DNA of 64,000 nt, taken from contig JAGMDC010000003.1 of assembly GCA_023128895.1 (NCBI GenBank), positions 2,254 to 66,253 on the forward strand, given 5' to 3'. The position numbers were made by a program, and so were the translations under genes. The notes beneath the pieces are model-generated. The model searched no databases. It worked only from the letters and a program-made list of their open reading frames with translations, and was not told the origin of the DNA. Below, one piece after another: positions 13,998 through 64,000 of the stretch. This DNA is from Candidatus Parcubacteria bacterium. GTDB taxonomy: Bacteria > Patescibacteriota > Minisyncoccia > Minisyncoccales > JAGMDC01. Each line of letters starts with the position of its first letter. The stretch's first letter is position 1.

Positions 13998-14026
13998 TTG
14001 ACAGCGTCTTTTACACGCTGTAATAT
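13998..14026 (+). promoter_or_regulatory. candidate sigma70-type promoter (TTGACA-17 nt-TAATAT) upstream of the recombinase pair
   Basis: TTGACA at 13998..14003, a 17-nt spacer, and TAATAT at 14021..14026. An additional TATAAT lies at 14044..14049. Confidence 0.4.
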
Positions 14027-14079
14027 AAATATAAAGAAGTGAGTATAATAACCCTTACACTCAGTAATAGATAAACAAT

Positions 14080-15495
14080 ATGTTAAATAAAAATAAGACT
14101 ATTATTAGCTATATCCCCTATTTTTTAGAATACTGCAAAATTGAAAAAAATCTTTTACCGAAAACTATTAAAAGTTATGATATTTTTTTGCGGCAATTTG
14201 CTACTTGGCTAAAAATTTCTAATTTATTCGATATACGGCCTGAAGAATTTTCTATAGAATATGCTGAAAAATATCGGGATTATCTATCCAAAGAAATTAA
14301 TGGTAGAAATCAACAAATTATTAGCAAAAAAACTCAAAATTATTATTTAATATCACTTCGCGCATTATTAACATTTTTCGTTGAAAAAAATATTAAGTCC
14401 CTCTCCCCTATTCAAGTAAGACTATTAAAAGAAGATAAAAAAATACCAAAAAATAAATTTTTAAATTCAGAAAAAATAGAATTAATACTTAAAATTCCTG
14501 ATACTTTAACTGTTATTGGCTTAAGAGACAGGGCTATTTTAGAAATTTTATTTTTTAATAGCTTAAAAGTTGGTCAAATTGTTAATTTAAATAAAAATAA
14601 TATTAATATAAAAGAAAAACATCAAATTTCAAAAAGATCTATAAAATGGATAAATAAATATCTCAAAACGAGACAAGAAGACAACGAAAAAGCCCTTTTT
14701 ATAAGTTATAAAGGGCCAAAGAAAAACGCTGGAGGGAGATTAAGCACTCGCTCTATTGAAAATATTGTTAAAAAATATATGACAAAATCAAAATTGGCTA
14801 CTTCCCTATCCCCTGAAAATTTGCGAAATATTTTTATAATCAACCTCTTGAACCAAAATGACAAAATTAAAATATATGATGAAATTTTTAATCATCAAAA
14901 ATTGAAAATCAGAAATGGTTATAAACCATCAGAAAGTAGAAAAAATAAAAGAATATCTAAAACATTACCTTACGCTTCTTGGAACACTATTGAATCTAAC
15001 ATAAATAAAGAAATAAAATGGTTGAAAGAAAATATTTCTGTTTTGTCCGCTGAATATGGACAAAATCGAAATTTCGTCTATTGCCACGATTGCCTTTTAA
15101 GGAAAATAGCGATTTTAATTGTAAGTGGTGAAATTGAAACTACTAAATTTGAAATACCACAAAGCAAAAAATTGTGGAATATTTCAAATGTCCAAAATAT
15201 CAAAATAATAAATAAGCATGGGCAAGAATGGCATCGCAAAATGATGAGTATAGTTTCAAAATATTTTGAAGATAAAAACTATAAAATAAAATTAGAACCT
15301 AATTTAAATTATGGAAGAGCGGATTTGGGTGTTTATTCAAAACAAAATCCAAAAGAAATTTTTTATATAGAGATAGGCACGGTATCTCTATTTAAACTTT
15401 GGTATAATTTTTCAACAATGAAAAATACTACCTTCTTAGTAATTCCGTTTGAAGAATATTTTATAGAGTTTAGCGCAAAATTAAATGAAAAATAA
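14080..15495 (+). CDS. degenerate Xer-like tyrosine-recombinase paralog with an extra C-terminal domain
   Basis: Has an N-terminal SAM-like core-binding domain. The box I region reads FNSLKVGQ (Lys where TGxR Arg is expected) and the box II region reads ENLRN (no HxxRH). There is no terminal LGH...Y. About 190 extra C-terminal residues contain GRADLGV...IFYIEIG. Confidence 0.6.
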   Translation: MLNKNKTIISYIPYFLEYCKIEKNLLPKTIKSYDIFLRQFATWLKISNLFDIRPEEFSIEYAEKYRDYLSKEINGRNQQIISKKTQNYYLISLRALLTFFVEKNIKSLSPIQVRLLKEDKKIPKNKFLNSEKIELILKIPDTLTVIGLRDRAILEILFFNSLKVGQIVNLNKNNINIKEKHQISKRSIKWINKYLKTRQEDNEKALFISYKGPKKNAGGRLSTRSIENIVKKYMTKSKLATSLSPENLRNIFIINLLNQNDKIKIYDEIFNHQKLKIRNGYKPSESRKNKRISKTLPYASWNTIESNINKEIKWLKENISVLSAEYGQNRNFVYCHDCLLRKIAILIVSGEIETTKFEIPQSKKLWNISNVQNIKIINKHGQEWHRKMMSIVSKYFEDKNYKIKLEPNLNYGRADLGVYSKQNPKEIFYIEIGTVSLFKLWYNFSTMKNTTFLVIPFEEYFIEFSAKLNEK

Positions 15496-16429
15496 AAATT
15501 TACCACATTTAGACGATTTTCTATTGAACTTGCAAACCAATAATTATTCAGAAGAGACGCTTTATAACTACGAACGGGATTTAGAAGTTCTAGAAAAATT
15601 TTTAGAAAAAGTAAAAATTGATTTTGCTGATATTGATAAAAAAACTATCCTAAATTATAAAGCGTATTTGGCTTCGCAAGACAGAGAAACGCCAAAAAGC
15701 GAAAAAGGCAAGAAAAAATTGGCCAGTTATTCTATGAATAGAATGCTGTCTTCTTTTCGTTCATATTTAAAATTTTTGATAGATATGGATTATAAATGCC
15801 CTATTCCGCCCGAGGTTATAAAATTAGTGAAAACAGAGAAAAAACATCCGCGAGTTTCTGAATTTGACGAAATAGTAAAATTAATTGAATCCCCTACTCT
15901 TTTCGAACACAACGAAATTGTGGCCTTGAGAAATAGAGCAATATTTGAAACATTATTTTCCACAGGGATGAGGATATCCGAATTAATAAACTTAAAAATA
16001 ATTCAAATAGATAAAACAGGCCGTATTTTTATCAGAGGAAAAGGAAAAAAAGAAAGATTTGTATATTTAACTCCAAGGGCTGAAAAACATATTAAGGATT
16101 ATTTGAAGAATAAAGAGAAAACAAATTCTTCTTATTTATTCACCCCGCTTAGAGGCAGAAACGTTAAAATCAAAGATAAAAAAATTTCCCCTAATTATAT
16201 ACAGGAGAAAATGAAAAGATATAGAGAAATCTTAGGATTGAATATTCCTATTTCTCCACATTCGCTTCGCCACGCTTTTGCCACTTATTTAGCGGAAAAC
16301 GGGGCTAATCCAGCTGCTATCCAAATTCTTTTAGGCCACGAATCATTAGATACCACTACTCGTTATGTTCATGCTTCTGACAGATACGCTGAAAAAATAC
16401 ATTGTAAATATCACCCATTAAAAAAATGA
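15485..16429 (+). CDS. tyrosine recombinase XerC/XerD family, catalytically intact
   Basis: ALRNRAIFETLFSTGMRISEL (Arg I), HSLRHAFATYL (His-x-x-Arg-His) and LGHESLDTTTRYVH (His, Tyr). 11-bp overlap with the upstream paralog. Confidence 0.85.
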   Translation: MKNKNLPHLDDFLLNLQTNNYSEETLYNYERDLEVLEKFLEKVKIDFADIDKKTILNYKAYLASQDRETPKSEKGKKKLASYSMNRMLSSFRSYLKFLIDMDYKCPIPPEVIKLVKTEKKHPRVSEFDEIVKLIESPTLFEHNEIVALRNRAIFETLFSTGMRISELINLKIIQIDKTGRIFIRGKGKKERFVYLTPRAEKHIKDYLKNKEKTNSSYLFTPLRGRNVKIKDKKISPNYIQEKMKRYREILGLNIPISPHSLRHAFATYLAENGANPAAIQILLGHESLDTTTRYVHASDRYAEKIHCKYHPLKK

Positions 16430-49136: not shown

Positions 49137-50093
49137 TTATTTGCTCAAAATTTCAATTAACACAAAAAGCGCGTAAATTCCCAATAAAAACATGGCTTCT
49201 TTTTTAGTGATTTTGCGATCTGTCCTCATAAAAAAGAAAAAGAACAAAGCGGAAATTATCAGAAAAAATCTGCCAATTGCAAAAGGGGAAAAATCCTGAA
49301 TTTGAATAGGGCAAATTATTGCCACACTTCCCAGAACTAAAGTTGCGGGTACAACAACAGAACCCATTAAATTGCCTAAAACCAGAGCAGACCTTCCCTG
49401 CCTCGCGGATATAACGGCAAAATATATTTCAGGCAAGGCGTTGCCAATAGCAATAATCAAAATCCCGATAAGCACTAAAGACAAATTCAAAGCATCGGCA
49501 AACCAGAGAGCGGAAAATATCATTCCCTGCGCCGCTAATATTAAAAAAGTTATTCCCAAAATTACCATCCCAATATTTTTTACAAACTCCGTAAAATCTT
49601 TAACCGTAATTTCGTCGTCTTTTTCATAAATTTTTGAGAATCTTTCTTCTTTGGAAAACAGCCAAAAAATATAAAAAACAAACATAAAAATCAAAATTAT
49701 TCCGTCTCCTCTGCCCAAAGTCCCGTCTAAAATCAGAAATAAAGGCAGAATAGCGACAACGATAGTGAACAACGACGACGCCTGAATTGTTTTTCCATCT
49801 GCTGGAAGCCCTCTAATAACCAATGCCGCTAATGCCACAGCAACAGTCAAATCAATCATATTTCCGCCTATTACGTCGCCGAAAGAAAGCAAAGGGACTT
49901 TATGCACAGCAGACGTAATACCAAAGAAAAAATTCGGAATTGCGCCAGCCAGGGCGATAGTAAAGAAAGCCACAACAAATTCTTTCCACTCCAAAAAACG
50001 AGCCATTCCCATTAAGCCCCTGATAAGCCATCTTCCGGAACAGAAAATCATCAAGCAAGAAATTATAAAAATTAAAATATAAAACCAAACCAT
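49137..50093 (-). CDS. Ca2+/cation antiporter (CaCA / YrbG-like)
   Basis: Alpha-repeat motifs GDVIGGNMIDL and GNALPE. Polytopic. The ATG at 50093 is preferred over the track start at 50135. Confidence 0.75.
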   Translation of the reverse strand: MVWFYILIFIISCLMIFCSGRWLIRGLMGMARFLEWKEFVVAFFTIALAGAIPNFFFGITSAVHKVPLLSFGDVIGGNMIDLTVAVALAALVIRGLPADGKTIQASSLFTIVVAILPLFLILDGTLGRGDGIILIFMFVFYIFWLFSKEERFSKIYEKDDEITVKDFTEFVKNIGMVILGITFLILAAQGMIFSALWFADALNLSLVLIGILIIAIGNALPEIYFAVISARQGRSALVLGNLMGSVVVPATLVLGSVAIICPIQIQDFSPFAIGRFFLIISALFFFFFMRTDRKITKKEAMFLLGIYALFVLIEILSK

Positions 50094-50097
50094 AATG

Positions 50098-51090
50098 TTA
50101 TAAACTTCTAACAAATTTTGACAATTCCGCAACATTTTCGCCTAATTGCGCTAATTTTTTAAAAGTTCCTTTGCCAAAAGTTTTATTTACTAACTTTCCC
50201 CAATTTAACTTTCCCGTAAGCATGGATTTAACAAACAAATCAAAAATTTTTTCTTCATCTCTAAATTCATTTTTATTTTTAGAATATAATTTTTCAATTA
50301 AAATATCCAAAATTTTTCTTTCTTTTCTGAAAGTGAAACCATGTATAACTGTTTTATATTCTTTTTCGCCAGATAGCGTTAAAATACTATTTGTTTTGAT
50401 AGAAAATATATTATCTACATCTTTATTTTTAAATTCTTCAAAAAGACTTTCTTTTGCTTTTTTAGTTTCATTTTTTTCTTTCTCAAACGATTCAGGTAAT
50501 TTTTCATTCAAAAATATATCTTCGTAAAATACTTTTTTAGTTAATTTTTCAGTAATAGCCTCATTCAAATTTTTAAAATATTTCTGTTTTGATTTTCTAT
50601 TTATTACAAATGTTCCGACCTGATAAACATCGCACTCCCCCTCCTCATTTTTTTGCAGCGATTGATAAGATTTAAAGTGAATAAATTCGTGTATACATGC
50701 ATTAGTAAATTTTAAAATTGAATCAGTATCCGCTATTGCAACAGCTTGCAAAAATGGTGTAAAGCGCGCAATTTCCTTTTTTTTGTTAAAAAATTTCTTA
50801 TAATCGTTTTCCGCAAAAATATGAACATTATCAGACGAAATATTAAATTCAGGCAAATTATATCTTTCCAACAACCTATTGGTAGCTTCGTTCGCTATTT
50901 GAACCGCCTCAATTTGTTCAGGTGTTTTTTCTATTTCTTTTTCTTGAATTTCTTTTTCAAATTCCTGTTGCTCAAAACGCCTGCTAAGTTCCTCTTTTAT
51001 TTGTTTCTCCTCCTTTACTTCTACGCCTATTATTTTCTTAACGGATTGCGAAGGATATTGCTCAATTTTTGGTGTAAGTTTTTCTCTCAT
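50098..51090 (-). CDS. hypothetical protein with HExxH motif (possible metallopeptidase)
   Basis: ACIHEFIHF. 4-bp overlap with the ATPase gene and a 4-nt gap to the antiporter gene. Confidence 0.4.
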   Translation of the reverse strand: MREKLTPKIEQYPSQSVKKIIGVEVKEEKQIKEELSRRFEQQEFEKEIQEKEIEKTPEQIEAVQIANEATNRLLERYNLPEFNISSDNVHIFAENDYKKFFNKKKEIARFTPFLQAVAIADTDSILKFTNACIHEFIHFKSYQSLQKNEEGECDVYQVGTFVINRKSKQKYFKNLNEAITEKLTKKVFYEDIFLNEKLPESFEKEKNETKKAKESLFEEFKNKDVDNIFSIKTNSILTLSGEKEYKTVIHGFTFRKERKILDILIEKLYSKNKNEFRDEEKIFDLFVKSMLTGKLNWGKLVNKTFGKGTFKKLAQLGENVAELSKFVRSL

Positions 51091-54090: not shown

Positions 54091-54130
54091 GTCAAAAAAA
54101 TTATATTTACAGGGGTCTGACCCCTGTAAA
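54091..54130 (-). terminator. intrinsic terminator downstream of res
   Basis: A 10-bp stem, tttacagggg/cccctgtaaa, with loop tctga. On the minus strand it is followed by tataattttttt. Confidence 0.55.
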
Positions 54131-54153
54131 TTTTATGTTCTCCGTAGTTAATT

Positions 54154-56733
54154 TTATTTAATATTTAAAGTTTCAAACATCTTCTCTTCGAATTTATTTT
54201 CATCCTCGCTCTGATAAAACGGCACACCTACAATTTTATACTTCTGCGATTTCGAAAATTCTAAAACTCTGTCTTTAAATTTATCTTTAATTTCTTCTAA
54301 AAATTTACTCTTCCATTTCTCTCCTTCAGCTAAATATTTTCCTTTCGGTTCTAGAAATAATTGATAAGTAATACTTCTACCAATTTTATCAACTAAAAAC
54401 AAAAGGTAATCCGGTTCAAACGCTTGGCCGTCACTAAAATTATAAATTTTCAGCTGTCTTTCATTACGAACTAAGTAAATCTTTTTAAAATTCTTTCTTA
54501 ATTCGTTTATCTGCCGGTCAATCAATTTAACAAATGTTTTTTCTTCACTTGTGCCATAATTAGCATTAAACACATACCATTCTTTATCTTCTAAAAATTC
54601 AATCTGGCCATCTTCTCTTTCGCTACGCATTTTGACTTTTATTTTCTTATCATTAAATTTATCTTTAATCAGATATGGCATAAATTCTTGACTACCGCTA
54701 TATTCAGTCAAATTTTCTTTAATTTGTTTTTCTATTTCGCCAAGAAGTTTTAAAACTGCCCGAAATTTATCTTCATTAGTTATAGTCGGAGTATATTTTT
54801 CTACCTGAAAATTGATTTTAAAACCAGCTAAATATTTTCCCTTTTCAACAAACTCGCTCGCAGAATCTATTTCCGGAACATATTTTTTTAAAGAACCAAA
54901 ATCGAAAAAATCATTCTTTGCCAAAGCGTTTCTAATAATGTGATAATCTATTTCCTTGAGGCTAATTTCCTTTCCTGTCCTTTTCACGCCTTCGCGTATT
55001 AAATCTTCGTCTTCCTTAAACACTGTTGTCTGTTTGCCTTCTCCGGATAATACCTTAAAGTCAATGCTTTTATTTCTTACCCCCAAATCATCAATCGATT
55101 TTACCTTATCAAAACTTATTGGTCTTTTTTCATTGGCATAAACTAATCCAAATTTATAAAAATTTGTTTTCTTAAATTCCTCTTTCAATTTCAACTCAAC
55201 CTCTACCTCATTTTCGTCAATCATTCCCTTTTCAATTAGAGCAATTTTTATCTCTGAAATATATCTTGATTCGTTATGGCTATGATAATGTAATTCTTCC
55301 AAAACACGGAGTTCATTATCTAAATTTTTATCATATTTCCTCTTAAACTTATCGTCAACTTCGCTCAACTTAAACGGAAAATAACGAGCGCCCCTGCCAA
55401 TTAACTGAGCTTCGGAAATAGTGGTTTTGCCAGGTCGGTTATTCCTGCCGTCTCTGGTTTCGTATAGTCGGACAATATCAAATAAATTCAAAACGTCCCA
55501 ACCCTCGTTTAGTTTCTGAACCGCAAAAATAGCCCGAATTTGATTATTTTTATCTTCAAGAGAGTTCAAAAGCAATTGATGTTTTTCTTTTTCCTGTTCT
55601 TCATTTACGCTTAAAGTTTTACTCTTGGCAAAACTATTTTTTAGTTTTTTAACTAAAATAGCATTGGTAATTTTATTGCTTTTAAAAAACTCAAACGCTT
55701 TTTGTAAAATTTCAATATTAGTTCTTTTTTTAATATTTTCAATATCCTTAATAGATAAATTATCAATTATTTTGTGAAACAATTTTTTATTACTTTCTGA
55801 TTGAGCAATTGTTTGTTGCGCCTTGAATAAAATTACCGGCTTTAAATTAATTCCGTGTTTGCCGGCTACCTCTTGTCGATATTGGCTTAAAATTATTGCC
55901 TGAATTATTCTCTCTCCCCTATCCGTATCTGTATGCAGTAATTCAACATCTTTTGAATAACCGTCGTTTCTAAATTCTTTTAATTCGTATTTGTAAATAA
56001 TTTTATTCCTATATTTATCAACTATATTTATGTCCGTCAAATCCATTGTCGCGGTAAACTCTAGTAATATATTTTCATTGTCTTGTTTAAATATTTTCTC
56101 AACCGTATTTTCCCAATTCGGCTTTTCAATCATTTCTTTTTGTGTATTTTTTGTCTGCACTTGTCCGTGATGCGCCTCGTCTGAAATTAAAACAATTTTT
56201 TTATCTTTAAAATCTTCCAAAGTCAAAGAGTTTTCTTTTTCATTATGCAAATCGCTATGTAATTTCTGAATAGTGGTAAAACAAATATTAATATCTCTAT
56301 CGCTTATACCGTCAAAATTTTCTACCTGTTTAATTTGCGTTTGTTTATTTTCAAAAAATATTTTTTGATTAAATAAATATTTGCTGGATAAATTATTCAG
56401 AAAGTTATCTTTGGTTTTTTCAATAATATTAGTGGAATTAACGAAAAATAAAAAATTTCTATATCCTCGCTCGTATAAATACAAAATCAATCCAGCCATA
56501 ATTAAAGTTTTGCCCGAGCCGGTAGCCATATTAAAAAGGAAGTGTAAAGGATATTCTTTATTCTCAAAATCGCGATTATAACAATGAAAAAAGCGCGCAA
56601 ACGCCTCTTTTTGATATTCGCGCAACTCAAAATTAGGATTTAGATTTTCCGACAAAAAACTCGGAATTTCTTTCGGCAATAATCCCATCTTTGACACACT
56701 ATTCAATTGCTCATATAAAAATTCTTGAGGCAT
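54154..56733 (-). CDS. res: Type III restriction endonuclease Res subunit
   Basis: SF2 helicase motifs MATGSGKT and SDEAHH. C-terminal PD-(D/E)xK endonuclease motif EPDYLLF ... LEPKG. Confidence 0.9.
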   Translation of the reverse strand: MPQEFLYEQLNSVSKMGLLPKEIPSFLSENLNPNFELREYQKEAFARFFHCYNRDFENKEYPLHFLFNMATGSGKTLIMAGLILYLYERGYRNFLFFVNSTNIIEKTKDNFLNNLSSKYLFNQKIFFENKQTQIKQVENFDGISDRDINICFTTIQKLHSDLHNEKENSLTLEDFKDKKIVLISDEAHHGQVQTKNTQKEMIEKPNWENTVEKIFKQDNENILLEFTATMDLTDINIVDKYRNKIIYKYELKEFRNDGYSKDVELLHTDTDRGERIIQAIILSQYRQEVAGKHGINLKPVILFKAQQTIAQSESNKKLFHKIIDNLSIKDIENIKKRTNIEILQKAFEFFKSNKITNAILVKKLKNSFAKSKTLSVNEEQEKEKHQLLLNSLEDKNNQIRAIFAVQKLNEGWDVLNLFDIVRLYETRDGRNNRPGKTTISEAQLIGRGARYFPFKLSEVDDKFKRKYDKNLDNELRVLEELHYHSHNESRYISEIKIALIEKGMIDENEVEVELKLKEEFKKTNFYKFGLVYANEKRPISFDKVKSIDDLGVRNKSIDFKVLSGEGKQTTVFKEDEDLIREGVKRTGKEISLKEIDYHIIRNALAKNDFFDFGSLKKYVPEIDSASEFVEKGKYLAGFKINFQVEKYTPTITNEDKFRAVLKLLGEIEKQIKENLTEYSGSQEFMPYLIKDKFNDKKIKVKMRSEREDGQIEFLEDKEWYVFNANYGTSEEKTFVKLIDRQINELRKNFKKIYLVRNERQLKIYNFSDGQAFEPDYLLFLVDKIGRSITYQLFLEPKGKYLAEGEKWKSKFLEEIKDKFKDRVLEFSKSQKYKIVGVPFYQSEDENKFEEKMFETLNIK

Positions 56734-56742
56734 ATTTTATTT

Positions 56743-57708
56743 CTAATTTTTTTCAGCTAAATATTTTTGTTTATTATATTTTTCCAACTGCTCCCTAACT
56801 TTCTTTTCCATTTTCAAACGAGAAACATTGCCGGCGTTTTGTAAAATTTCTTTGTCATTCAAAATCAAAAAATCGTCCAGTTTTTTAATCCAATTTTTCA
56901 TATACATCACTCTTTGCTCTACACTCTGCAATTCCGCGAAAGATAAAAATTGCTCTACTAATAAATTTAATCTTTTCAATTCTAATTCTTGTAAATAATT
57001 TTTAGCGATTTCTGCCTGTTCGCGGGTAATAATCTCGCCTTTCCAATTTGTAAGTCCCAAATTCTCTTTTTTGTTGTCAATTCTATTATTAACAATTTCC
57101 GCCGCGGTCAAACCAGTAATCGCAAAATGAAATTTATTCTGCACCATTGCGAAAAATTGTTTGGCGTAATCGGTTTTGGAATTATAATCCGCGCTGGTAG
57201 CAAAAACATCTCTCACTTTTTGATAAAAATTAGCCTCCGAAGTTCTGATTTTTCTAATCCGCTCTTCCCATTCTCCAAAATATGTTTTTGCCACCCGACC
57301 CTCCGCTAATCGTTCATCATCCATTGTGAAACCTTTAATAATATAATCTCGCAATTTTTGCGTCGCCCATATTCGGAACTGCGTGCCGCGAAGAGATTTT
57401 ATGCGATAACCTACTGAAATGATAACATCCAAATTGTAACAATCTATATCTCTTACCACCTCTCTACCACCCTCTTTTTGAACTATCCGGAATTTCCGGA
57501 TAGTTGAATTTTCTACTAATTCTCCTTCTGAAAACATATTTTTAATATGCTCATTTATTGTTCTCATATCTTTGTCAAAAAGCTCTGCCATCTGTTTTTG
57601 GCTAAGCCAAACCGTCTCGTTTTCCAGCCGAACTTCAATTTTTGTTTCTCCGTCTTCGGTGTTATAGATAATAATTTGATTATTTTTTTCTTTTCGATTT
57701 TTGGTCAT
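56743..57708 (-). CDS. rhuM: RhuM-family protein
   Basis: IIIYNTEDGETKIEVRLENETVWLSQKQMAELF ... VISVGYRIKSLRGTQFRIWATQKLRDYIIKGF is characteristic of RhuM. Confidence 0.85.
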   Translation of the reverse strand: MTKNRKEKNNQIIIYNTEDGETKIEVRLENETVWLSQKQMAELFDKDMRTINEHIKNMFSEGELVENSTIRKFRIVQKEGGREVVRDIDCYNLDVIISVGYRIKSLRGTQFRIWATQKLRDYIIKGFTMDDERLAEGRVAKTYFGEWEERIRKIRTSEANFYQKVRDVFATSADYNSKTDYAKQFFAMVQNKFHFAITGLTAAEIVNNRIDNKKENLGLTNWKGEIITREQAEIAKNYLQELELKRLNLLVEQFLSFAELQSVEQRVMYMKNWIKKLDDFLILNDKEILQNAGNVSRLKMEKKVREQLEKYNKQKYLAEKN

Positions 57709-57751: not shown

Positions 57752-58441
57752 TTAAAAATTCGTTTTTGCATCTCCATAAATTCCAGTTTTATAAGTCTGA
57801 ACATTTAATAAAAAATCAAAATGATATTTCTGACTAAAATCACTTTTTATTTTTCTCACTAATTTTTGAAAATTAGAAGGGTCGGCTGGTTGATTGTAAG
57901 TAAAAATCCAAATAATCCCTTTATCATTCAAATTTTCACCCTTATTCTTTTGCTCTTTCGTAGACTTTATTTGTTCTAAAGATTTTTTTACTTTCTCGTT
58001 TATTCTTTTTTCCCCAATAGAAGAAACAAACTTAGCCTCACAATATATACAGAATTCGCCTAGTAATAATTCGAAATCACACATTTGAACATTTGATTCA
58101 GTCAATTTGGTTAATACTTTATTATTTAGCTTGTATCCCCTTATTATATGCTTTGCTAAATCAATTTCAGCAAAATGATCTCCTACTTTTTTGACAGCCT
58201 GCTCTTCTGATAATGAAACGCTTAATTCATTTTTAAATCCTAACAAGGTTTCGAAATTTTTAATGCATCTGTCATATTCCATTATTAATTTCTTGTCATC
58301 TTGTATAAAACCTTCCCAATCATTTTTTAAAAGCATAACAACCTCGCTGTTGCTTTTTGTAATTGCTAAAAATTGATCTAATGAATTTTGTGCTATTGCC
58401 TTGAGATATCTAAGTCGTTTATTATTTTTTTCATTTTTCAT
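57752..58441 (-). CDS. hypothetical 229-aa protein with a possible PD-(D/E)xK nuclease motif
   Basis: CDFELLLGEFCIYCEAKF (D-x12-E-x-K). The ATG at 58441 overlaps the end of a mod remnant. The track start at 58450 is GTG. Confidence 0.5.
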   Translation of the reverse strand: MKNEKNNKRLRYLKAIAQNSLDQFLAITKSNSEVVMLLKNDWEGFIQDDKKLIMEYDRCIKNFETLLGFKNELSVSLSEEQAVKKVGDHFAEIDLAKHIIRGYKLNNKVLTKLTESNVQMCDFELLLGEFCIYCEAKFVSSIGEKRINEKVKKSLEQIKSTKEQKNKGENLNDKGIIWIFTYNQPADPSNFQKLVRKIKSDFSQKYHFDFLLNVQTYKTGIYGDAKTNF

Positions 58442-58586
58442 AAAATTCACTATTTAATTTCTTATCTCCTTCGCTCACTTTAAAATCTCTGTCCTTAATC
58501 TCACTCAAATTTACATAAAGCTGATTTTTGTTAAGGATATCAAAAAGGGAACGTTTTTGTTTGGCAACGGGAAGTTTTTTAAATTC
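58431..58586 (-). pseudogene. remnant 2 of a Type III mod 3' end (51 codons plus stop)
   Basis: Translates as EFKKLPVAKQKRSLFDILNKNQLYVNLSEIKDRDFKVSEGDKKLNSEFYEK-stop. 41 of 51 residues are identical to the Mod C-terminus. A TAG lies immediately upstream. Confidence 0.85.
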
Positions 58587-58637
58587 CTATCAGCCGTGTT
58601 TTTAAAATTCTTCGGTGATTAGTTTTTGGATTTGATA

Positions 58638-59378
58638 TTATAATCGCCTCTCTAATAATTTTTTTTGGTCTCCCTGTAATACTTGTTCGTTAGGATTTTC
58701 CCAGCCAAAAAATTGAAAAGTTTTTATTACTTTTTCAAGTGAATAAAAATCAAATTTAGCTATCAAATCGTCTTTCTTGTATATTTCAGAAAAAGGTATC
58801 TTTCCGTTATCAAAATTACATATATAAGGCGACCATAAATCCCTGTCCCGGTCCCAAGTAAATAACAATCTATCTTTTACATCATTCAATTCTATTATTA
58901 TTTCAAATTCGTTCACATCTTCATATTCTTTCAACTGAGCCAAGTTAGATGCAAACAAATATATTTCAGTAAATTTATAAACGGTAGATACCGTTTCAAA
59001 AAATTTATTTATATCTTTAGCTTTATCTTTATTAAAAGCAAAATCGGATTTTATTTCATCAGCTTTTTGTTTATCAATAATATAATCTTCCTTCATAGAA
59101 AAAATATGCGCGAATTGTCCGCTTGTTATAAATTCCCAATACTCAATATACCCCTCAAACTTACATTCATTGCTTATCGCATTCTGCTCTATAATTTTAA
59201 TATCATTCCTGCTTATATGTGGATAATACCAACCACGCAAACGCACCTGATTATCTTCAATAATTTTCGCTAATTCTGAAATATCAAAACGATCAACCCT
59301 ATAAAAAGGTTGAGTAGGTCTAATTACTACTCGCCAATATCCCTTTTGCTTAATTATTTTTTTTATATCTTCGTTCAT
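58638..59378 (-). CDS. hypothetical 246-aa protein, translationally coupled to the AlbA_2 gene
   Basis: ATGA overlap with the upstream gene. No motif recognised. Confidence 0.55.
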   Translation of the reverse strand: MNEDIKKIIKQKGYWRVVIRPTQPFYRVDRFDISELAKIIEDNQVRLRGWYYPHISRNDIKIIEQNAISNECKFEGYIEYWEFITSGQFAHIFSMKEDYIIDKQKADEIKSDFAFNKDKAKDINKFFETVSTVYKFTEIYLFASNLAQLKEYEDVNEFEIIIELNDVKDRLLFTWDRDRDLWSPYICNFDNGKIPFSEIYKKDDLIAKFDFYSLEKVIKTFQFFGWENPNEQVLQGDQKKLLERRL

Positions 59379-60007
59379 ATTTTTAATTCTTTATCAAAAG
59401 GATTAACCCCTTTGCCCTTAATAATTGAATAGCGGCGAAGTGTTTCTTTTTCAAATTTTTTATAAGTTCGCTCAATCAATTCCTGCCATTCATGTATTGT
59501 AGATATTTCTTTATTTCCAATATTTGACTTATTTCTTATATAAAGCGCTCCTGTCCTCAAGCTAATATTATTATTAAAAGCTTGGATACTTTGATTTTTT
59601 AATTCTTGATTCCCTATATAAACCAATGGAAACTCTTTGCTTTCTGAAACCTGAATAAACACAAACTTTTTTACTTTTTTATCTTTAGTATCTAAATGTT
59701 CAAATTTTTCAACTTTACACTGAATCGGCTGATTACCCCTGCCTGTGAGATATTGATTGATTTGATCGTGTGAATATGAATTATAATTATTATCATCAAG
59801 ACCCTCTCGTGTGCCATCGTCTTTTGCTCCTACTACAATAATCCCACCGCCTCGCTCATTAGATAAAGCAAAAATAGTTTCTACTATTTCAAGCATTTTC
59901 ACCCTGTCAGACCAAGCAACATTACCTTTATATTCAAGATAAACTTCTTCTTTACCGTGATACAGAGCGATTTTTAAATTTTCTGGAATATCGTTTATAT
60001 AACTCAT
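59375..60007 (-). CDS. AlbA_2 (Schlafen-like) domain protein
   Basis: EEVYLEYKG ... IVETIFALSNERGGGIIVVGAKDDGT matches the AlbA_2 E-x-L-E-[FY]-K ... AfaN..GG.l..GV.D.G pattern. The ATG at 60007 is preferred; the track start at 60052 lies in a mod remnant in another frame. Confidence 0.7.
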   Translation of the reverse strand: MSYINDIPENLKIALYHGKEEVYLEYKGNVAWSDRVKMLEIVETIFALSNERGGGIIVVGAKDDGTREGLDDNNYNSYSHDQINQYLTGRGNQPIQCKVEKFEHLDTKDKKVKKFVFIQVSESKEFPLVYIGNQELKNQSIQAFNNNISLRTGALYIRNKSNIGNKEISTIHEWQELIERTYKKFEKETLRRYSIIKGKGVNPFDKELKI

Positions 60008-60011
60008 ATAT

Positions 60012-60110
60012 TTATTTTCCATAAAACCCCTCGTTAATCCTTTTATCTCCATCGCCGACCTTAAAATCTTTATCCTTAATCTCGCTTAAATTTACATAAA
60101 GTTGATTTTT
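60012..60110 (-). pseudogene. remnant 1 of a Type III mod 3' end (32 codons plus stop)
   Basis: Translates as KNQLYVNLSEIKDKDFKVGDGDKRINEGFYGK-stop. 26 of 32 residues are identical to the Mod C-terminus. The stop is followed by 4 nt and then the ATG of the next gene, as at the real mod end. Confidence 0.85.
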
Positions 60111-60155
60111 AAAATCGCTATTAAATTGCTCGTAAAAAAATTACTGGGGCACAAT

Positions 60156-61961
60156 TTATGAAAATTTTTTGGAGACAAACTGAAAAATTTTTTCGAATTT
60201 TTTAAGCGTACCGTCGTTTAACTTAAAATCTCTGTTATTAATAAACAAATCTTGTATTGCAGTATTAAATTTTGATTTATTAAAACCGGTTTCTTTTTTG
60301 TGCTCTGGAAATAAATTTTGTATAATTTTAATTTGTTCGCTATCAGTAAACAGATCTTCAGTTTTTAAATTATCAAACTTTTTATCAATGTCTTGAAGAA
60401 TAAAAATCTTTTTTTCTAATTCAATGCCAATGTCATTTATATATCTTTTTTGTTCTTTTCGTCCTTGATTGTCTGCGTCAAATATGGCTATAAATTTTTT
60501 ATTCCAAGATAAATATAACCTAAAAAGTTCATCATATTTTGAAACTCCTGCACCGGGATAAAAATTTAAATCAAACTTATTTTTAAAAAACTTATTCTGA
60601 ATATATTTGAAAGTATAATAATCATTTTTCCCCTCAGTACACACTATATTAGGAATTTGTTCTAAATCACTGGGACAATAATGTATCGAATCTAATATGG
60701 GCTGAAAATAATCTTTTTCATCAGGATATCCGGCAACAAAATTTTTATACAATATCGCTTTGATATCGGTTTTGCTTTGATTAAATGCTTCGTCGTTTTT
60801 ATAATTAATAGCTTCATTTTTTATGATATAAGTACCTGATAAAAATTTTGGGTTGATCAAATGATGGCTGTGTGTAGAGTAAATTAACTTACATTTATCA
60901 GTAAGTTTTTCGAATAAATTAAGTAATTTTTTCTGTGAATACTGATGTAAATTGCTTGCAGGTTCATCTAATAAAAACAAAGTTTCTCCTTTATCGTCTG
61001 CTCTTTCTTTTCTAAATTCGGTAAAAATTAAAAAACTAAAAAACCATCGAAAACCGAGGCTTCTTTCTCTTATATAATATCTATCAGCACCTTGTTTAAT
61101 TTTTAACTCTATATAATACCCCTTATTGTCTTGACCAGTTATTAACTCTATTTGCTTGTTGCTTTTTTCAAATATTTCTTCCCAACTTTTAAAAATCTTA
61201 TTTGTTAATTTTTCACTAACCTGTCCCAATAATGCATCTAGAGCTTCCTTGTCTTCACTTTCACTACTTTCTAACCTATTTAAAATATGGTCATTAACTA
61301 TTAAAGTGTTGTCAACTGAATTTAATATATCTTGCAATACTGCTCGGTATTCTTCCTGCTCAATACTCTCGCCTTCATATTTTTCTAAATAAATTTTTTG
61401 CGGAAAATCAAATAGAAAATTTTCATAATAAACGATCTTTGGAAAAAGATTTTCTTTTATTTTTTTAATGACTTTAATCCATTTATCTCTATCTTTATCA
61501 TATAAGCGACTATCCTTTTTAGCTCTTTCTTTTTTACCCAATAAATTAATATTCCAAGTCGAACTAGGAGACTCTTCTTCGCATTTAGAATTTTTAAATT
61601 TATACTCTTTTGTATAAATTATCTGTCCAACATCTTGAGCTAAAATAAAGCGTCTTTCGCCATTATTTTTTTCATTGCAAAATTTTTTTATTTCTTTCTC
61701 GTCTTCAGCATCTAATTCTAATGTTGCAAGAACGGATATGCTACCATTAAAATTTCCTTTTTTGCTTTTATGTATCATTTCGTGTGCATGATCTCTGTTA
61801 ATATTATTATGTAAAAGATTTATTGCTTCCAGTATAGAGGTTTTTCCACTTTCATTTAAACCGACGAAGGTAAAAATATTCGCTTTTGGTAATTTTGTTA
61901 AATCTATTTCTATTTTTTCTATTCCTTTATAATTTTTTATTGTAAATTTTGTATATTTCAT
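60156..61961 (-). CDS. OLD-family-like ABC ATPase with a C-terminal Toprim-like domain
   Basis: Walker A GLNESGKTS, signature-like SLGFRWFF, Walker B LFLLDEPASNLH, and H-loop STHSHH. C-terminal VCTEGKNDY ... AIFDADNQG (E...DxD). Confidence 0.75.
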   Translation of the reverse strand: MKYTKFTIKNYKGIEKIEIDLTKLPKANIFTFVGLNESGKTSILEAINLLHNNINRDHAHEMIHKSKKGNFNGSISVLATLELDAEDEKEIKKFCNEKNNGERRFILAQDVGQIIYTKEYKFKNSKCEEESPSSTWNINLLGKKERAKKDSRLYDKDRDKWIKVIKKIKENLFPKIVYYENFLFDFPQKIYLEKYEGESIEQEEYRAVLQDILNSVDNTLIVNDHILNRLESSESEDKEALDALLGQVSEKLTNKIFKSWEEIFEKSNKQIELITGQDNKGYYIELKIKQGADRYYIRERSLGFRWFFSFLIFTEFRKERADDKGETLFLLDEPASNLHQYSQKKLLNLFEKLTDKCKLIYSTHSHHLINPKFLSGTYIIKNEAINYKNDEAFNQSKTDIKAILYKNFVAGYPDEKDYFQPILDSIHYCPSDLEQIPNIVCTEGKNDYYTFKYIQNKFFKNKFDLNFYPGAGVSKYDELFRLYLSWNKKFIAIFDADNQGRKEQKRYINDIGIELEKKIFILQDIDKKFDNLKTEDLFTDSEQIKIIQNLFPEHKKETGFNKSKFNTAIQDLFINNRDFKLNDGTLKKFEKIFQFVSKKFS

Positions 61962-61965
61962 AATT

Positions 61966-63978
61966 TTAATTTTTATAAAACTCCTTATTTATCTTCTTAT
62001 CTCCCTCCCCGACCTTAAAATCCTTATCCTTAATCTCGCTTAAATTTACATAAAGCTGATTTTTATTGAGCAGGTCAAAAAGAGTGCGTTTTTGTTTGGC
62101 AAGCGAGAGTTTTTTAAATTCGTCAATTGTCTCGTCAAACTTTTTGATATCAACATTATAATTCAAAAAACTTTTCTTTTTCATTTCTTCCCAAATTTTC
62201 AAAAATGTTTTTGTATCTTTGGCTTTCTGAATTTTCTTTACAAACAGCTCATTATATTTCATCAGTTCGCAATAAACAAAATCACCTCCACCTTTCCAAT
62301 CAACTATCTTGGAAATTCCAGTTTGGTCGCCATTGAGAACATTATTCAATCTTACTTCTACATTGTTCTTTCCGTAATCAAGTTGTTCGACTCCAACATA
62401 TTGACGACCCATTTTGTGTGCAACTGTACAAGTTGTTCCTGTCCCTACAAAAAAATCCAAAACTAAATCATCATTTTTTGTGACTAAATCTATAATTAAT
62501 CTAAGTAATTCTTCTGGTTTCTTGCCATACTTTAATTCAACCCTACCCTCACCTGCAATTCCCTGCCATAAATCTTTTGTAATTATATTTGATATTTGCT
62601 CTAATTTAACCACAACTTTTTTTCTTCCATTTTGTTTTATCTCGGCATTTTCATTTAAAAAGAGAATTCCTTCTTTTTTATAGACATAATATTTCATTTT
62701 CTGATCTTTATATTTTCCTTTTGACGGAGTATGGTAATAAGAAAATAGACCATTATCAGGTATTAATTCTCTTATTTTTCTCTCAATTCCACCTGAAAGA
62801 GTCGCTGTTCTAAAAATTTTGACAAAATTTTTAACATAAAAGTTTTCTATACTCCCGACATTCTTTAGATTGATTTTTTCAATTTTGTAATCATTCATTC
62901 TTCTTATTTCGATTTTTCTAGTTTGTGTTTGAAATGTTCCGACTATATCTCCTTCTTCGCCTTCTGATTCAAAAAGTAAATTATAACTTTCAATTGTCTT
63001 TGACTTTTCATTCACAACTTCCTTCTCAACGGAATTATTATAAGGTTCAACTTTGTTATTTCTGCCATAAATTAGTATATTTTCCTTAATGTCAAAGATT
63101 AATCCTCCTGTAGCCACACCAGAGGGCGCCTTAACTTTTATTGCCATACTTGAAATAAAATTCTCTCGTTTGAAAACTTCGTCCATTAAAACCTTTAAAT
63201 AAGCATGTTCTCTATCATCACATTGCACAAAAATAACTCCGTCGTCCATTAATAATTCTCTGGCAACTTCTAACCTATTTTTCATAAAAGTCAACCAAGT
63301 AGAATGATTGAAACTATCATTATATTGAAAATCTCCATTGATATTATAAGGAGGATCAATATAGATAAGTTTTACCTTATTTTGAAATTGTTGTTTAAGA
63401 GAATGAAGCGCTAAAAGGTTATTTCCTTTGATAATTAAATTTTCCCGAATTGTGCCGTCCTTATCTCTTTTTAATTCTTTAACTTTTTCTTCGCCTTTTT
63501 GAGTATATCTTTTCCAATTAGTTAAAACTTTTGGTGAAAATAATTTGTCAATTTCGTCTTGCGCTAAAATTTCATTGAAAAATATCTCTTTTCGTTTTTC
63601 ATCTTCTTTCGTCATTCCGCCCTCCAATACACAATCCTTAAATGGCCAAACAAGAGCTACTTCATTGCGTTCGTTTAAAAATTTTTCGTCAATATTAAGC
63701 CCGATTTTATTCCTGTATTTTGTATAAGAATCAGCCAAAAAGTTTTTATCAGAAATGTATGCCACAAAATCATTGATATTAAAAACCAATGCGTCTTTTA
63801 TTTTGCTAAAAAACTTGTTCTTAAACTCTTTTTGCGAAAGCAAAACCTCAATCAACTTTTTATCCGCTTTATAAGCCGCGTCAATTACATTACTTTTCAA
63901 TAAATCTCCCTCTCGATCAATAAAACGAGAGTCATTTTTAAGTAATTTTTCTAATTTTGAATAAAATTTTTGTAGCAT
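61966..63978 (-). CDS. mod: Type III R-M DNA methyltransferase Mod (N6-adenine, beta-class order)
   Basis: Motif IV IYIDPPYN precedes motif I DFFVGTGTTCTVA. Length is 670 aa. Confidence 0.9.
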   Translation of the reverse strand: MLQKFYSKLEKLLKNDSRFIDREGDLLKSNVIDAAYKADKKLIEVLLSQKEFKNKFFSKIKDALVFNINDFVAYISDKNFLADSYTKYRNKIGLNIDEKFLNERNEVALVWPFKDCVLEGGMTKEDEKRKEIFFNEILAQDEIDKLFSPKVLTNWKRYTQKGEEKVKELKRDKDGTIRENLIIKGNNLLALHSLKQQFQNKVKLIYIDPPYNINGDFQYNDSFNHSTWLTFMKNRLEVARELLMDDGVIFVQCDDREHAYLKVLMDEVFKRENFISSMAIKVKAPSGVATGGLIFDIKENILIYGRNNKVEPYNNSVEKEVVNEKSKTIESYNLLFESEGEEGDIVGTFQTQTRKIEIRRMNDYKIEKINLKNVGSIENFYVKNFVKIFRTATLSGGIERKIRELIPDNGLFSYYHTPSKGKYKDQKMKYYVYKKEGILFLNENAEIKQNGRKKVVVKLEQISNIITKDLWQGIAGEGRVELKYGKKPEELLRLIIDLVTKNDDLVLDFFVGTGTTCTVAHKMGRQYVGVEQLDYGKNNVEVRLNNVLNGDQTGISKIVDWKGGGDFVYCELMKYNELFVKKIQKAKDTKTFLKIWEEMKKKSFLNYNVDIKKFDETIDEFKKLSLAKQKRTLFDLLNKNQLYVNLSEIKDKDFKVGEGDKKINKEFYKN

Positions 63979-64000
63979 ATTATTTTACATTAACTTATTC

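Follow-up and report, generated by a model that had tools for sequence, protein, structure and literature searches.

[quoted passage not shown]

How do unrelated genes come to lie between the two subunit genes of a restriction-modification system, and do they leave a trace of their arrival? The question is raised by a Type III operon in a metagenome-assembled genome of a Candidatus Parcubacteria bacterium, contained in a 64-kb stretch of DNA (the window, meaning the whole stretch that was analysed). Both the Mod and the Res subunits are recognized by Pfam and PADLOC models, and their genes are not adjacent, being separated by 5.2 kb and six genes on the same strand; all six cargo genes are in minus orientation and nested between mod and res. 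Along this strand the order is mod, a gene for an OLD-like ATPase, remnant 1, an AlbA_2 gene with a 246-aa partner gene, remnant 2, a 229-aa gene, a RhuM-family gene and res (Table 1), the remnants being partial copies of the mod 3' end. Here we describe these copies, compare the locus with related Type III loci, and weigh the processes that may have produced it. The source samples are filed as ENA ERZ23498673, ERZ23499063 and ERZ23498859 (BioSamples SAMN18200503-06).

The locus and its partial mod copies

In addition to the Pfam matches given in Table 1, Mod matched TypeIII_RM_meth, the N-terminal domain specific to Type III systems (PF12564; 3e-19), and the PADLOC model MTase_III (2e-186), while Res, a helicase-like ATPase, matched PADLOC REase_III at full length (residues 2-854; 3e-139). 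Among the cargo, PADLOC defence matches were obtained for the OLD-like ATPase (AriA, 3e-28; Old, 7e-14) and the RhuM protein (PDC-S05), and none for the AlbA_2, 246-aa and 229-aa proteins. The OLD-like ATPase belongs to a large family of full-length proteins (3252 relatives), and a plasmid search returned only distant matches to it, at 20-27% identity. Searches of Pfam, PADLOC and NCBIfam gave no match for the 246-aa protein and no family match for the 229-aa protein; the latter has only 2 homologues among 5.8 billion proteins, and its single-sequence AF2 model was unusable (pLDDT 44.7). Both the AlbA_2 gene with its 246-aa partner and the 229-aa gene are regarded as defence candidates. Just one intergenic terminator-like site was found in the mod-to-res interval, the hairpin that follows res, the remaining minus-strand hairpin matches (5-10 pairs) all lying within coding sequence; the whole array is probably co-transcribed as one operon.

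Table 1. Coordinates of the Type III operon, its cargo genes and the mod 3'-end copies in the window
Feature	Position	Strand	Evidence or remark
Type III mod, intact, 670 aa	61966..63978	-	Pfam N6_N4_Mtase (PF01555), 2e-39
Real mod 3' end, reference repeat copy, last 51 codons and stop	61966-62121	-
Cargo 1: OLD-like / AAA_15 ATPase, 601 aa	60156..61961	-	Pfam AAA_15, 2e-25
45-nt spacer, OLD-like stop to remnant 1	60111..60155	-	Presumed illegitimate joint
Remnant 1: last 32 mod codons and stop	60012..60110	-	87% nt identity to mod
Cargo 2a: AlbA_2 (Schlafen-like), 210 aa	59375..60007	-	Pfam SLFN_AlbA_2, 3e-11
Cargo 2b: 246-aa AlbA_2 partner	58638..59378	-	4-nt overlap with AlbA_2
51-nt spacer	58587..58637	-	Possible degraded continuation of remnant 2 as far as ~58613
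Remnant 2: last 51 mod codons and stop	58431..58586	-	81% nt identity to mod
Cargo 3: 229-aa protein	57752..58441	-	ATG inside remnant 2
RhuM-family gene, PADLOC candidate PDC-S05	56743..57708	-	Pfam 1e-98; PADLOC 4e-130
Type III res, intact, 859 aa	54154..56733	-	Pfam ResIII (PF04851), 1e-33
Terminator-like hairpin 3' of res, 12-bp stem and T-run	54105..54131	-

The window holds exactly three copies of the mod 3' end, all in direct orientation, which a repeat search recovered as one three-copy family. Remnant 1 translates as KNQLYVNLSEIKDKDFKVGDGDKRINEGFYGK-stop and agrees with the real mod end in 86 of 99 nt and 27 of 33 codon positions (32 residues and the stop); remnant 2 translates as EFKKLPVAKQKRSLFDILNKNQLYVNLSEIKDRDFKVSEGDKKLNSEFYEK-stop and agrees in 126 of 156 nt and 42 of 52 codon positions. 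Both can be read in the Mod frame through to a stop, and remnant 2 may continue as decayed sequence that contains a 2-nt indel and stop codons. When the last 73 residues of Mod were compared with the 64-kb window by tblastn, the real end was recovered with E = 4e-43, remnant 2 with E = 7e-24 and remnant 1 with E = 2e-13, and the next match was noise (E = 0.04). The junctions with the following genes are also alike: the mod stop is followed by 4 nt and the ATG of the OLD-like gene, the stop of remnant 1 by 4 nt and the AlbA_2 ATG at 60007, and the 229-aa gene has its ATG (58441) within remnant 2 (TTTTATGAAAAATGA). The coordinates, translations and spacing given by the earlier sequence-only reading of this locus were all recovered when re-read from the sequence. 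A stretch at 60211-60242, matching in frame at the OLD-like C-terminus in 25 of 32 nt, was considered as a fourth remnant and rejected as a chance similarity native to the OLD-like family, its C-terminal motif being conserved in 60+ ATPase-family homologues.

The substitutions that separate the copies are concentrated at third codon positions. Counted by codon position, mod and remnant 2 differ at 7/3/20 sites (binomial p = 0.0002), and the two remnants differ from each other at 3/6/13 (binomial p = 0.012). Furthermore, all residues invariant in the Mod family are kept in the remnants, and of the 16 residue replacements 12 are also found in natural Mod alleles. The third-position bias and the retained invariant residues argue for distinct functional mod alleles as the source, and the proposal of the earlier reading that the remnants represent ends of once-functional alleles is thus supported at the sequence level. 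The remnants themselves are probably without protein function. The Mod tail to which they correspond is not covered by solved relatives such as EcoP15I, Mbo45V and H. pylori Mod.

The mod-res junction and the mod tail in related loci

The surroundings of mod were surveyed in 139 related Type III loci (72 species-representative and 67 metagenome loci) drawn from the best 160 of >8000 Mod homologues, a family spread over Patescibacteria, DPANN archaea, Bacteroidota and others. Within this set, a mod-res gap of 0.35-3.3 kb was found in 35 of the 72 species-representative and 39 of the 67 metagenome loci; in the other 65 of the 139 the gap is at most 47 nt, except in two metagenome loci, where it is 114 and 141 nt. 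As diverse defence-type genes thus lie between mod and res in about half of the 139 loci, the junction constitutes an insertion hotspot. In the species-representative loci the inserted ORFs are nearly all co-oriented and start -19 to about +90 nt from the mod stop, their families including RhuM, PD-(D/E)XK, Shedu SduA, DUF3800, YhcG, OLD, UvrD-like helicase, SMODS/AGS_C, TIR, NYN and HepT-like proteins; an Abi_C gene is carried by the metagenome locus L129.

Remnants are rare in this hotspot. When the Mod tail of each locus was compared with the insert of that locus by Smith-Waterman alignment, none was found in 34 species-representative loci and one in the metagenome loci (L129), so that 73 of the 74 related insert-bearing loci (from the same best 160 of >8000 homologues) are remnant-free, among them multi-gene inserts (L006, L019, L039 and L074). 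Ordinary cargo exchange therefore leaves no such scar. Three further candidates (L149, L067 and L076) were discarded as remnant carriers, as they contain whole tandem mod genes instead. L129 has the order mod end, a 247-aa cargo gene, a 58-codon in-frame remnant and the Abi_C gene, and the ATG of its cargo, like that of the 229-aa gene, lies in the TTTTATG of Phe-Tyr codons.

The AlbA_2 module provides a second comparison. The AlbA_2 and 246-aa pair is conserved at 72-84% amino acid identity in L084-L095 and L180, and L093 and L094 share the AlbA_2 start seen at 60007. L093, an unrelated contig, carries an 87%-identical AlbA_2 gene preceded by a mod remnant of its own, of ~22 codons and frameshifted, which has another truncation point than remnant 1 and the same junction of stop, 4 nt and ATG; next to these lies a PGA_cap-like gene fragment (a weak Pfam match, below cut-off). 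A partial mod tail thus travels with a cargo module in L093. The homologous modules of L084-L092, L094-L095 and L180 have no remnant, and AlbA_2 modules elsewhere lie behind other methyltransferase, GmrSD or AAA_15 genes. In L180, a marginal 'TIDEFKNLSLLQR' match (E = 0.035) was observed upstream of AlbA_2. Neither of the two known homologues of the 229-aa gene has a remnant.

The earlier reading had also placed each passenger block, at one time, directly behind its own mod gene. For AlbA_2 this gains support from the independent remnant of L093 with its identical junction; for the 229-aa gene it would follow by analogy. An intact donor arrangement was found for 0 of the 3 blocks, since a database search for contigs in which an intact mod is directly followed by the AlbA_2, the 229-aa or the window's OLD-like gene returned none, and the donors are accordingly hypothetical.

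Comparison with the closest relatives, L178 and L179, revealed a mosaic. Both share with the window the order RadC, mod and a different cargo, and L178 has in addition RhuM and res. The last ~330 nt of mod are 82-93% identical to these two loci, whereas the upstream recognition domain is only 40-64% identical; RhuM and res, which make up a conserved frame on the right-hand side, are 88% identical to L178 at the nucleotide level over 3.5 kb, giving a succession of 90% / 40-64% / 82-93% / cargo / 88% between the window and L178. In a 90-nt comparison the real mod end is nearest to L178 (90%) and the remnants are no nearer to it, and these identities to L178 and L179 do not tell apart the ancestral resident copy. 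Across 149 loci, the synonymous-site entropy of the conserved core is that of the background, and on this ground the idea that the core contains an RNA element or a site acting at the DNA level was rejected.

Origin of the remnants

Taken together, these observations are best accounted for by sequential homology-anchored insertions with one illegitimate joint each, of which the remnants would be the scars; we consider this the probable explanation, its recombination mechanism and order of events being inferred. Across the Mod family, the conserved final ~330 nt of mod separate two hypervariable regions, the recognition domain upstream and a cargo slot downstream, which usually receives defence-type genes tight behind the mod stop. 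Most cargo turnover would be plain, scarless replacement, with mod and RhuM/res as homology arms. Twice in the lineage of the window, incoming DNA consisting of a mod 3' end and new cargo would have recombined homologously within mod, and its far end would have been attached through an illegitimate joint within the tail of the resident mod, at a distance from the stop of 51 codons in the earlier event and 32 in the later one. Such a process could be described as homology-facilitated illegitimate recombination or, equivalently, as Campbell-type insertion of a circularised fragment. With every such event an intact mod would be restored and the old tail and old cargo pushed downstream, so that the 229-aa gene would have arrived first, the AlbA_2 and 246-aa pair next, and the OLD-like gene last. 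The final bases of each remnant still include the translation-initiation region native to the following gene. Stacking through recombination within the mod 3' end, as had been suggested earlier, is hence retained in its homologous part and is insufficient alone, as recombination at the 3' end cannot by itself make a truncated copy that abuts unrelated DNA. Cassette loss by loop-out between the direct repeats, also raised by the earlier reading, may occur; the complete array is present in all 7 contigs that encode the window's Mod protein. Homology of the 45-nt spacer, the presumed joint, to mod or other loci was sought and not found. Remnant lengths of 58 codons in L129, 51 and 32 in the window and ~22 in L093 indicate that the joints are non-site-specific. 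The process appears to be rare and the case for its generality is thin, with a remnant in 1 of 74 other insert-bearing loci.

A bolder extension, which we regard as rather improbable, is that the conserved ~330-nt tail of this widely transferred Type III family serves as an integrase-free cassette platform, partial tails acting as portable homology arms for RecA. If true, defence cassettes would be gained, lost by loop-out and exchanged through RecA between Type III operons of different bacterial and archaeal phyla, in a homologous-recombination counterpart of the integron for defence genes.

Among the alternatives to scars of insertion, the one that survives best, although we hold it unlikely, is that the remnants are retained by selection as functional elements, namely a ribosome-binding or coupling region, a promoter, a Mod-tail peptide or portable homology arms. 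Each remnant reaches the stop exactly and preserves the start context native to the gene that follows, and L093 keeps the last ~22 codons only, as such a role would predict; nevertheless, a start-context role would need just the last 20-30 nt, a peptide would have no in-frame start codon and remnant 2 is immediately preceded by stops, promoter-like matches are not enriched over shuffles and none falls inside a remnant, and the AlbA_2 modules listed above work without one.

A local origin, in which the tail was duplicated in situ by slippage or unequal crossing-over, cargo was inserted later and the copies diverged in place, is less probable still. It would agree with the kinship of the three copies, which come from the same Mod sub-clade, the resident end being the nearest relative of each remnant, alone or jointly with others. 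In-place decay, however, would not be expected to produce a remnant-to-remnant divergence in which 13 of 22 mismatches fall at third positions (p = 0.012), nor does it account for an AlbA_2-linked remnant with a different truncation point in another genome, or for a gene-start junction at each remnant like that behind intact mod genes (-19 to about +90 nt).

Site-specific integration has a smaller chance yet of being the origin. Direct repeats together with a restored target gene are the classic mark of islands that target 3' ends, and in the window the repeats are direct, flank discrete gene blocks and leave the target gene restored; the mod tail would then be an attachment site, the cargo small integrative elements with a replacement mod end, and the repeats of attL/attR type. 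Against this, the mod-res proteins gave no integrase or recombinase family match, the called flanking genes include no such gene, and the repeat boundaries differ every time, so that neither the recombinase nor the att repeats of constant extent that define an integrative island were found. Moreover, synonymous sites are as variable as the background across the 149 loci, which implies no DNA-level constraint in the conserved core, and 73 of the 74 other inserts have no repeat.

Least credible of all is an assembly artefact in which strains with different cargo were chained through a shared repeat, a concern in a metagenome-assembled genome given that the repeat is common to many alleles in such samples, since the full array occurs in all 7 contigs with the window's Mod protein (three of them, from independently assembled samples, compared base by base, with 0 mismatches over 6.8-10 kb), exact matches between the copies do not exceed 32 and 23 nt, the remnants start abruptly at unique spacer DNA whereas graph chaining would run into upstream mod, and comparable structures exist in the unrelated assemblies of L129 and L093; the objection of collapsed or chimeric assembly is therefore not upheld.

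Comparison with known systems

Integron arrays resemble the locus in their ordered, promoterless, co-oriented cassettes behind a fixed entry, with the newest first and repeats at the borders. The window differs in that no integrase match was found among the mod-res proteins and called flanking genes and neither attC-type cassette sites nor a conserved DNA site were found, the copies being direct and coding-derived, with irregular boundaries and no inverted-repeat partner reported. A phase-variable shufflon, which has inverted silent copies of a specificity domain and a nearby recombinase, differs likewise, as the copies here are direct, comprise the non-variable tail only and are accompanied by no recombinase.

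Type III mod genes undergo allelic shuffling via conserved flanks around the hypervariable recognition domain (Bayliss et al., 2006; PMC1557822). The conserved 5' and 3' parts of mod are recombination substrates in both cases, and a mosaic of this kind is seen between the window and L178/L179. Shuffling, however, exchanges the recognition domain within the gene, whereas in the window the 3' arm is shared with a second variable slot that lies beyond the gene, and truncated copies of this arm have remained in place.

Embedded defence genes are familiar from PrrC in EcoprrI and BrxU in BREX. They have been described in multi-gene defence systems, namely Hma, BREX, DISARM and Type I R-M, in a text that mentions neither embedding in Type III R-M nor duplicated gene ends and offers for the origin of embedding only the idea of a 'genomic sink' (Payne et al., 2024; bioRxiv 10.1101/2024.01.29.577857). 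As in those systems, diverse cargo lies between core genes, nearly always co-oriented, and includes PADLOC embedding candidates (RhuM being PDC-S05); the window differs in its Type III host and in having scars as a direct clue to mechanism. The nesting of defence genes, previously left to the sink idea, would thus have physical footprints in a Type III operon, which point to entry beside the mod stop, to a most recent block adjoining mod, and presumably to one homologous and one illegitimate joint per addition. The mod-res junction is in turn a slot that can be mined for known and unknown defence candidates.

The closest parallel is found in displacement arrays. Orphan or displaced 3' modules have reportedly been described for Rhs, CdiA and T6SS effector-immunity arrays under the name 'C-terminal displacement' (Jackson, 2009; Poole, 2011). 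For Rhs and T6SS effector-immunity arrays, a model of homology-facilitated illegitimate recombination has been proposed (Kirchberger, 2017; PMC5361080). The window has the anatomy of such an array, with an intact gene followed by direct, 5'-truncated 3' copies, each with its own passenger, and with truncation points that vary. As in the Rhs, CdiA and T6SS arrays, the conserved upstream part of the gene is the anchor, the newest module adjoins the intact gene, older modules lie downstream behind direct 3' copies truncated at variable points, and plain homologous replacement is commoner than the rare scarred additions. In those arrays, however, the displaced piece is a variable toxin tip and the passenger its immunity gene, whereas the piece duplicated in the window comes from a DNA methyltransferase, being its conserved, non-specificity end, and the passengers are unrelated stand-alone defence-type genes, with no toxin-immunity logic that would keep old modules. 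The locus is thus a case of a known array-building route seen in a new setting, the Type III restriction-modification operon.

Mod-tail remnants as tails of distinct alleles

A tblastn search of the whole window with the last 73 Mod residues recovered three copies of the mod tail (E = 4e-43, 7e-24 and 2e-13) and none further below E = 0.04. Beside the real mod end, these are the truncated direct copies remnant 1 (32 codons plus stop, 86/99 nt matching the real end) and remnant 2 (51 codons plus stop, 126/156 nt). The sequence-only reading had given both translations, placed an ATG 4 nt after the mod and remnant 1 stops, and had remnant 2 overlapping the ATG of the 229-aa gene; translations and spacing were recovered exactly. 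A possible fourth remnant at 60211-60242, in frame close to the 3' end of the OLD-like gene, has 25/32 nt in common with remnant 2, and the window holds no further match of this kind. It was rejected as a coincidence, since relatives throughout the ATPase family conserve the motif that it encodes.

Features of the mod-res locus in window coordinates
Feature	Position	Strand	Remark
mod	61966-63978	-	full-length Type III subunit
OLD-like AAA_15 ATPase gene	60156-61961	-	
spacer, 45 nt	between OLD-like gene and remnant 1	-	
remnant 1	60012-60110	-	
AlbA_2 gene	59375-60007	-	overlaps 246-aa gene
246-aa gene	58638-59378	-	
spacer, 51 nt	between 246-aa gene and remnant 2	-	
remnant 2	58431-58586	-	
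229-aa gene	57752-58441	-	
RhuM-family gene	56743-57708	-	
res	54154-56733	-	full-length Type III subunit

Third codon positions hold most of the mismatches, the counts by codon position being 2/3/8 between mod and remnant 1 (binomial p = 0.035), 7/3/20 between mod and remnant 2 (p = 0.0002) and 3/6/13 between the remnants (p = 0.012). Furthermore, all 9 family-invariant Mod residues falling in the remnants are retained, and substitutions occur exclusively at family-variable positions, with 12 of the 16 replaced residues found in natural alleles. Taken together, these features indicate that most of the divergence arose while the sequences were still coding, bearing out the earlier proposal that the remnants are ends of different functional mod alleles. 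In the conserved core, the entropy of synonymous sites across 149 family members is equal to the background value; conservation thus acts at the protein level only, and nothing points to a DNA recombination site or an RNA element.

An assembler chaining strain variants through a repeat would not give this picture. A Candidatus Parcubacteria genome encodes a protein 100% identical to the window Mod, and this protein is present on 7 contigs; the three contigs shown, from separately assembled samples, all share the gene order and match 6.8-10 kb of the window with 0 mismatches. In addition, each remnant begins abruptly beside unique spacer DNA, and the longest exact matches between mod-tail copies are only 32 and 23 nt. 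The identical arrays, short matches and abrupt starts make an assembly artefact very unlikely.

At 58587-58613, the 51-nt spacer 5' of remnant 2 aligns weakly (about 58%, with a 2-nt indel) to the preceding mod codons and holds a near-copy of the first 13 nt of remnant 2 (GAATTTTAAAAAC), suggesting that the true joint may lie about 27 nt further upstream. In public gene calls AlbA_2 starts within remnant 1, giving 215 aa from 60022 or 225 aa from 60052; the start favoured by alignment with the homologous loci L093 and L094 is the ATG at 60007 (210 aa). As the only terminator-like site between genes lies 3' of res, the eight genes from mod to res probably form a single operon. The G+C content of the locus (26-33%, versus about 35-40% across most of the window) fits acquired DNA; markedly low values (25-28%) also occur at 14001-16000 and 50001-51000, outside the locus.

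The mod-res junction and its cargo

The closest relatives found, L178 and L179, display the same frame with other cargo: L178 reads RadC-mod, a 439-aa gene plus a D12 methyltransferase gene, and RhuM-res, and L179 cargo is similar. Window and L178 share about 90% identity over mod nucleotides 1-720, 40-64% in the region of the recognition domain, 82-93% in the final ~330 nt of mod and 88% along 3.5 kb of RhuM-res; their cargo is unrelated. This mosaic presents the mod tail as a conserved arm with a variable region on either side. For exchange of the recognition domain, recombination at the conserved flanks of mod is established (PMC1557822). A RadC-family gene lies 7 nt 5' of mod in the source-strain locus L001 (9311-9994, just beyond window position 64000) and in L178 (8323-8994), and in L179 (1267-1935) an inserted Fic gene separates it from mod; the RadC gene appears to belong to the conserved frame.

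The mod-res junction is an insertion hotspot. An alignment of Mod C-termini was searched against one genome per species and against metagenome contigs. Among the matches listed, mod and res lie <=42 nt apart in 37 of 72 species-representative loci with both genes and 355-3289 nt apart in 35; metagenome loci carried an insert in 39 cases and none in 28. In the species representatives, the set in which insert ORFs were read, nearly all of these ORFs are co-oriented with mod, the first starting from 19 nt before to about 90 nt after the mod stop. Cargo there is highly diverse and comprises RhuM (10 loci), a PD-(D/E)XK family (6), UvrD-like helicase, Shedu SduA, DUF3800, YhcG, OLD nuclease, metallo-beta-lactamase-fold, SMODS/AGS_C, TIR, NYN and HepT-like proteins, and many proteins lack any family; metagenome locus L129 adds Abi_C. 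Two to four complete tandem mod genes occur in L076:2171-10228, L067:6244-10234 and L149:8098-10213 (e.g., four on a Caldilineaceae chromosome), with res directly after them in L076 and L149 and none detected in L067; the stacking at this locus is here of another type and resembles the reported Mycoplasma bovis locus (one res, three mod).

A remnant was found in only 1 of the 74 other insert-bearing loci. This one, L129, a 2.4-kb contig, contains a mod end, a 247-aa cargo gene whose ATG sits in the TTTTATG of the final mod Phe-Tyr codons, an in-frame 58-codon remnant (87% nucleotide identity) and the Abi_C gene. In L093, from another assembly (ENA ERZ23498638), the AlbA_2 gene is 87% identical to that of the window, and nucleotide homology extends 73 nt 5' of it into a mod remnant of only about 22 codons with a 5-nt deletion. 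Like remnant 1, this remnant has the GATAAAAGRATTAAC variant and a stop codon set 4 nt before the ATG. Farther 5' the two loci are unrelated, and L093 carries a gene fragment that matches PGA_cap weakly, under the Pfam cut-off. One AlbA_2-linked tail truncated at two different points implies that an intact mod once stood directly 5' of AlbA_2 in an ancestor. The proposal that each passenger block once followed its own mod is therefore supported for the AlbA_2 block and tentative for the 229-aa gene, neither of whose only two homologues has a remnant. Outside this array, no intact mod directly followed by one of its cargo blocks was found among the contigs surveyed.

AlbA_2 (210 aa) and the 246-aa gene form a conserved overlapping pair (window 58638-60007, L084-L095, L180) in many metagenomes. 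Copies other than those of the window and L093 (72-84% identity) lie behind other methyltransferases, GmrSD or AAA_15 genes, none with a mod remnant; AlbA_2 and its partner thus make up a mobile module of two genes and, having no match in PADLOC or NCBIfam, a candidate defence system. At L180:6688-6735, 5' of the module, the end of a 239-aa ORF (TIDEFKNLSLLQR) is similar to Mod at about residues 617-632 (E = 0.035, from a very small search space), perhaps by chance or perhaps as an older relic. Neither the 229-aa nor the 246-aa protein had a family match in Pfam, PADLOC or NCBIfam. In L097:960-1906, downstream of a class I SAM methyltransferase, one of the two homologues of the 229-aa gene precedes a RhuM-like gene as in the window, hinting that the two may travel together.

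Proposed origin of the array

By analogy, the best fit is the displacement scheme proposed for T6SS effector-immunity arrays and for Rhs and CDI orphans (PMC5361080). The common event would be scar-free homologous replacement between two conserved arms; rarely, an incoming fragment would be anchored homologously on one side, in mod, and joined illegitimately at its far end. A joint inside the resident mod tail would rebuild mod from the donor and shift the old tail and cargo downstream, and two such additive events would yield the observed order, the OLD-like gene being the last arrival. Single-crossover integration of a circularised fragment would be formally equivalent and not separable from the linear-fragment scheme. 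We infer all steps beyond scars of distinct alleles, and the direction of events rests on the displacement model.

Specific evidence stands against three other explanations. One is that the remnants are kept by selection for function, of which a limited contribution is plausible because the gene behind each remnant has its start context in the last bases of that remnant. Another is in-situ duplication of the mod tail. The third is site-specific att integration: no recombinase family was matched among proteins of the mod-res interval or the called flanking genes, and the spread of remnant lengths (58, 51, 32 and about 22 codons) indicates that the mod tail was joined at arbitrary points.

Relation to known systems

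Nested defence genes have been described for Hma, BREX, DISARM and Type I R-M, with 96.7% co-orientation, their origin being left to a "genomic sink" idea and no other mechanism; embedding in Type III R-M and duplicated gene ends are both absent from the text of that study (10.1101/2024.01.29.577857). No description of genes embedded between mod and res was found in the literature searched. Displacement arrays are well known at toxin loci; the window array is similar in build but made of defence cassettes, its cargo genes being candidates for defence activity. The locus therefore joins two known themes, defence-gene nesting and the displacement array, anchored on a methyltransferase tail.
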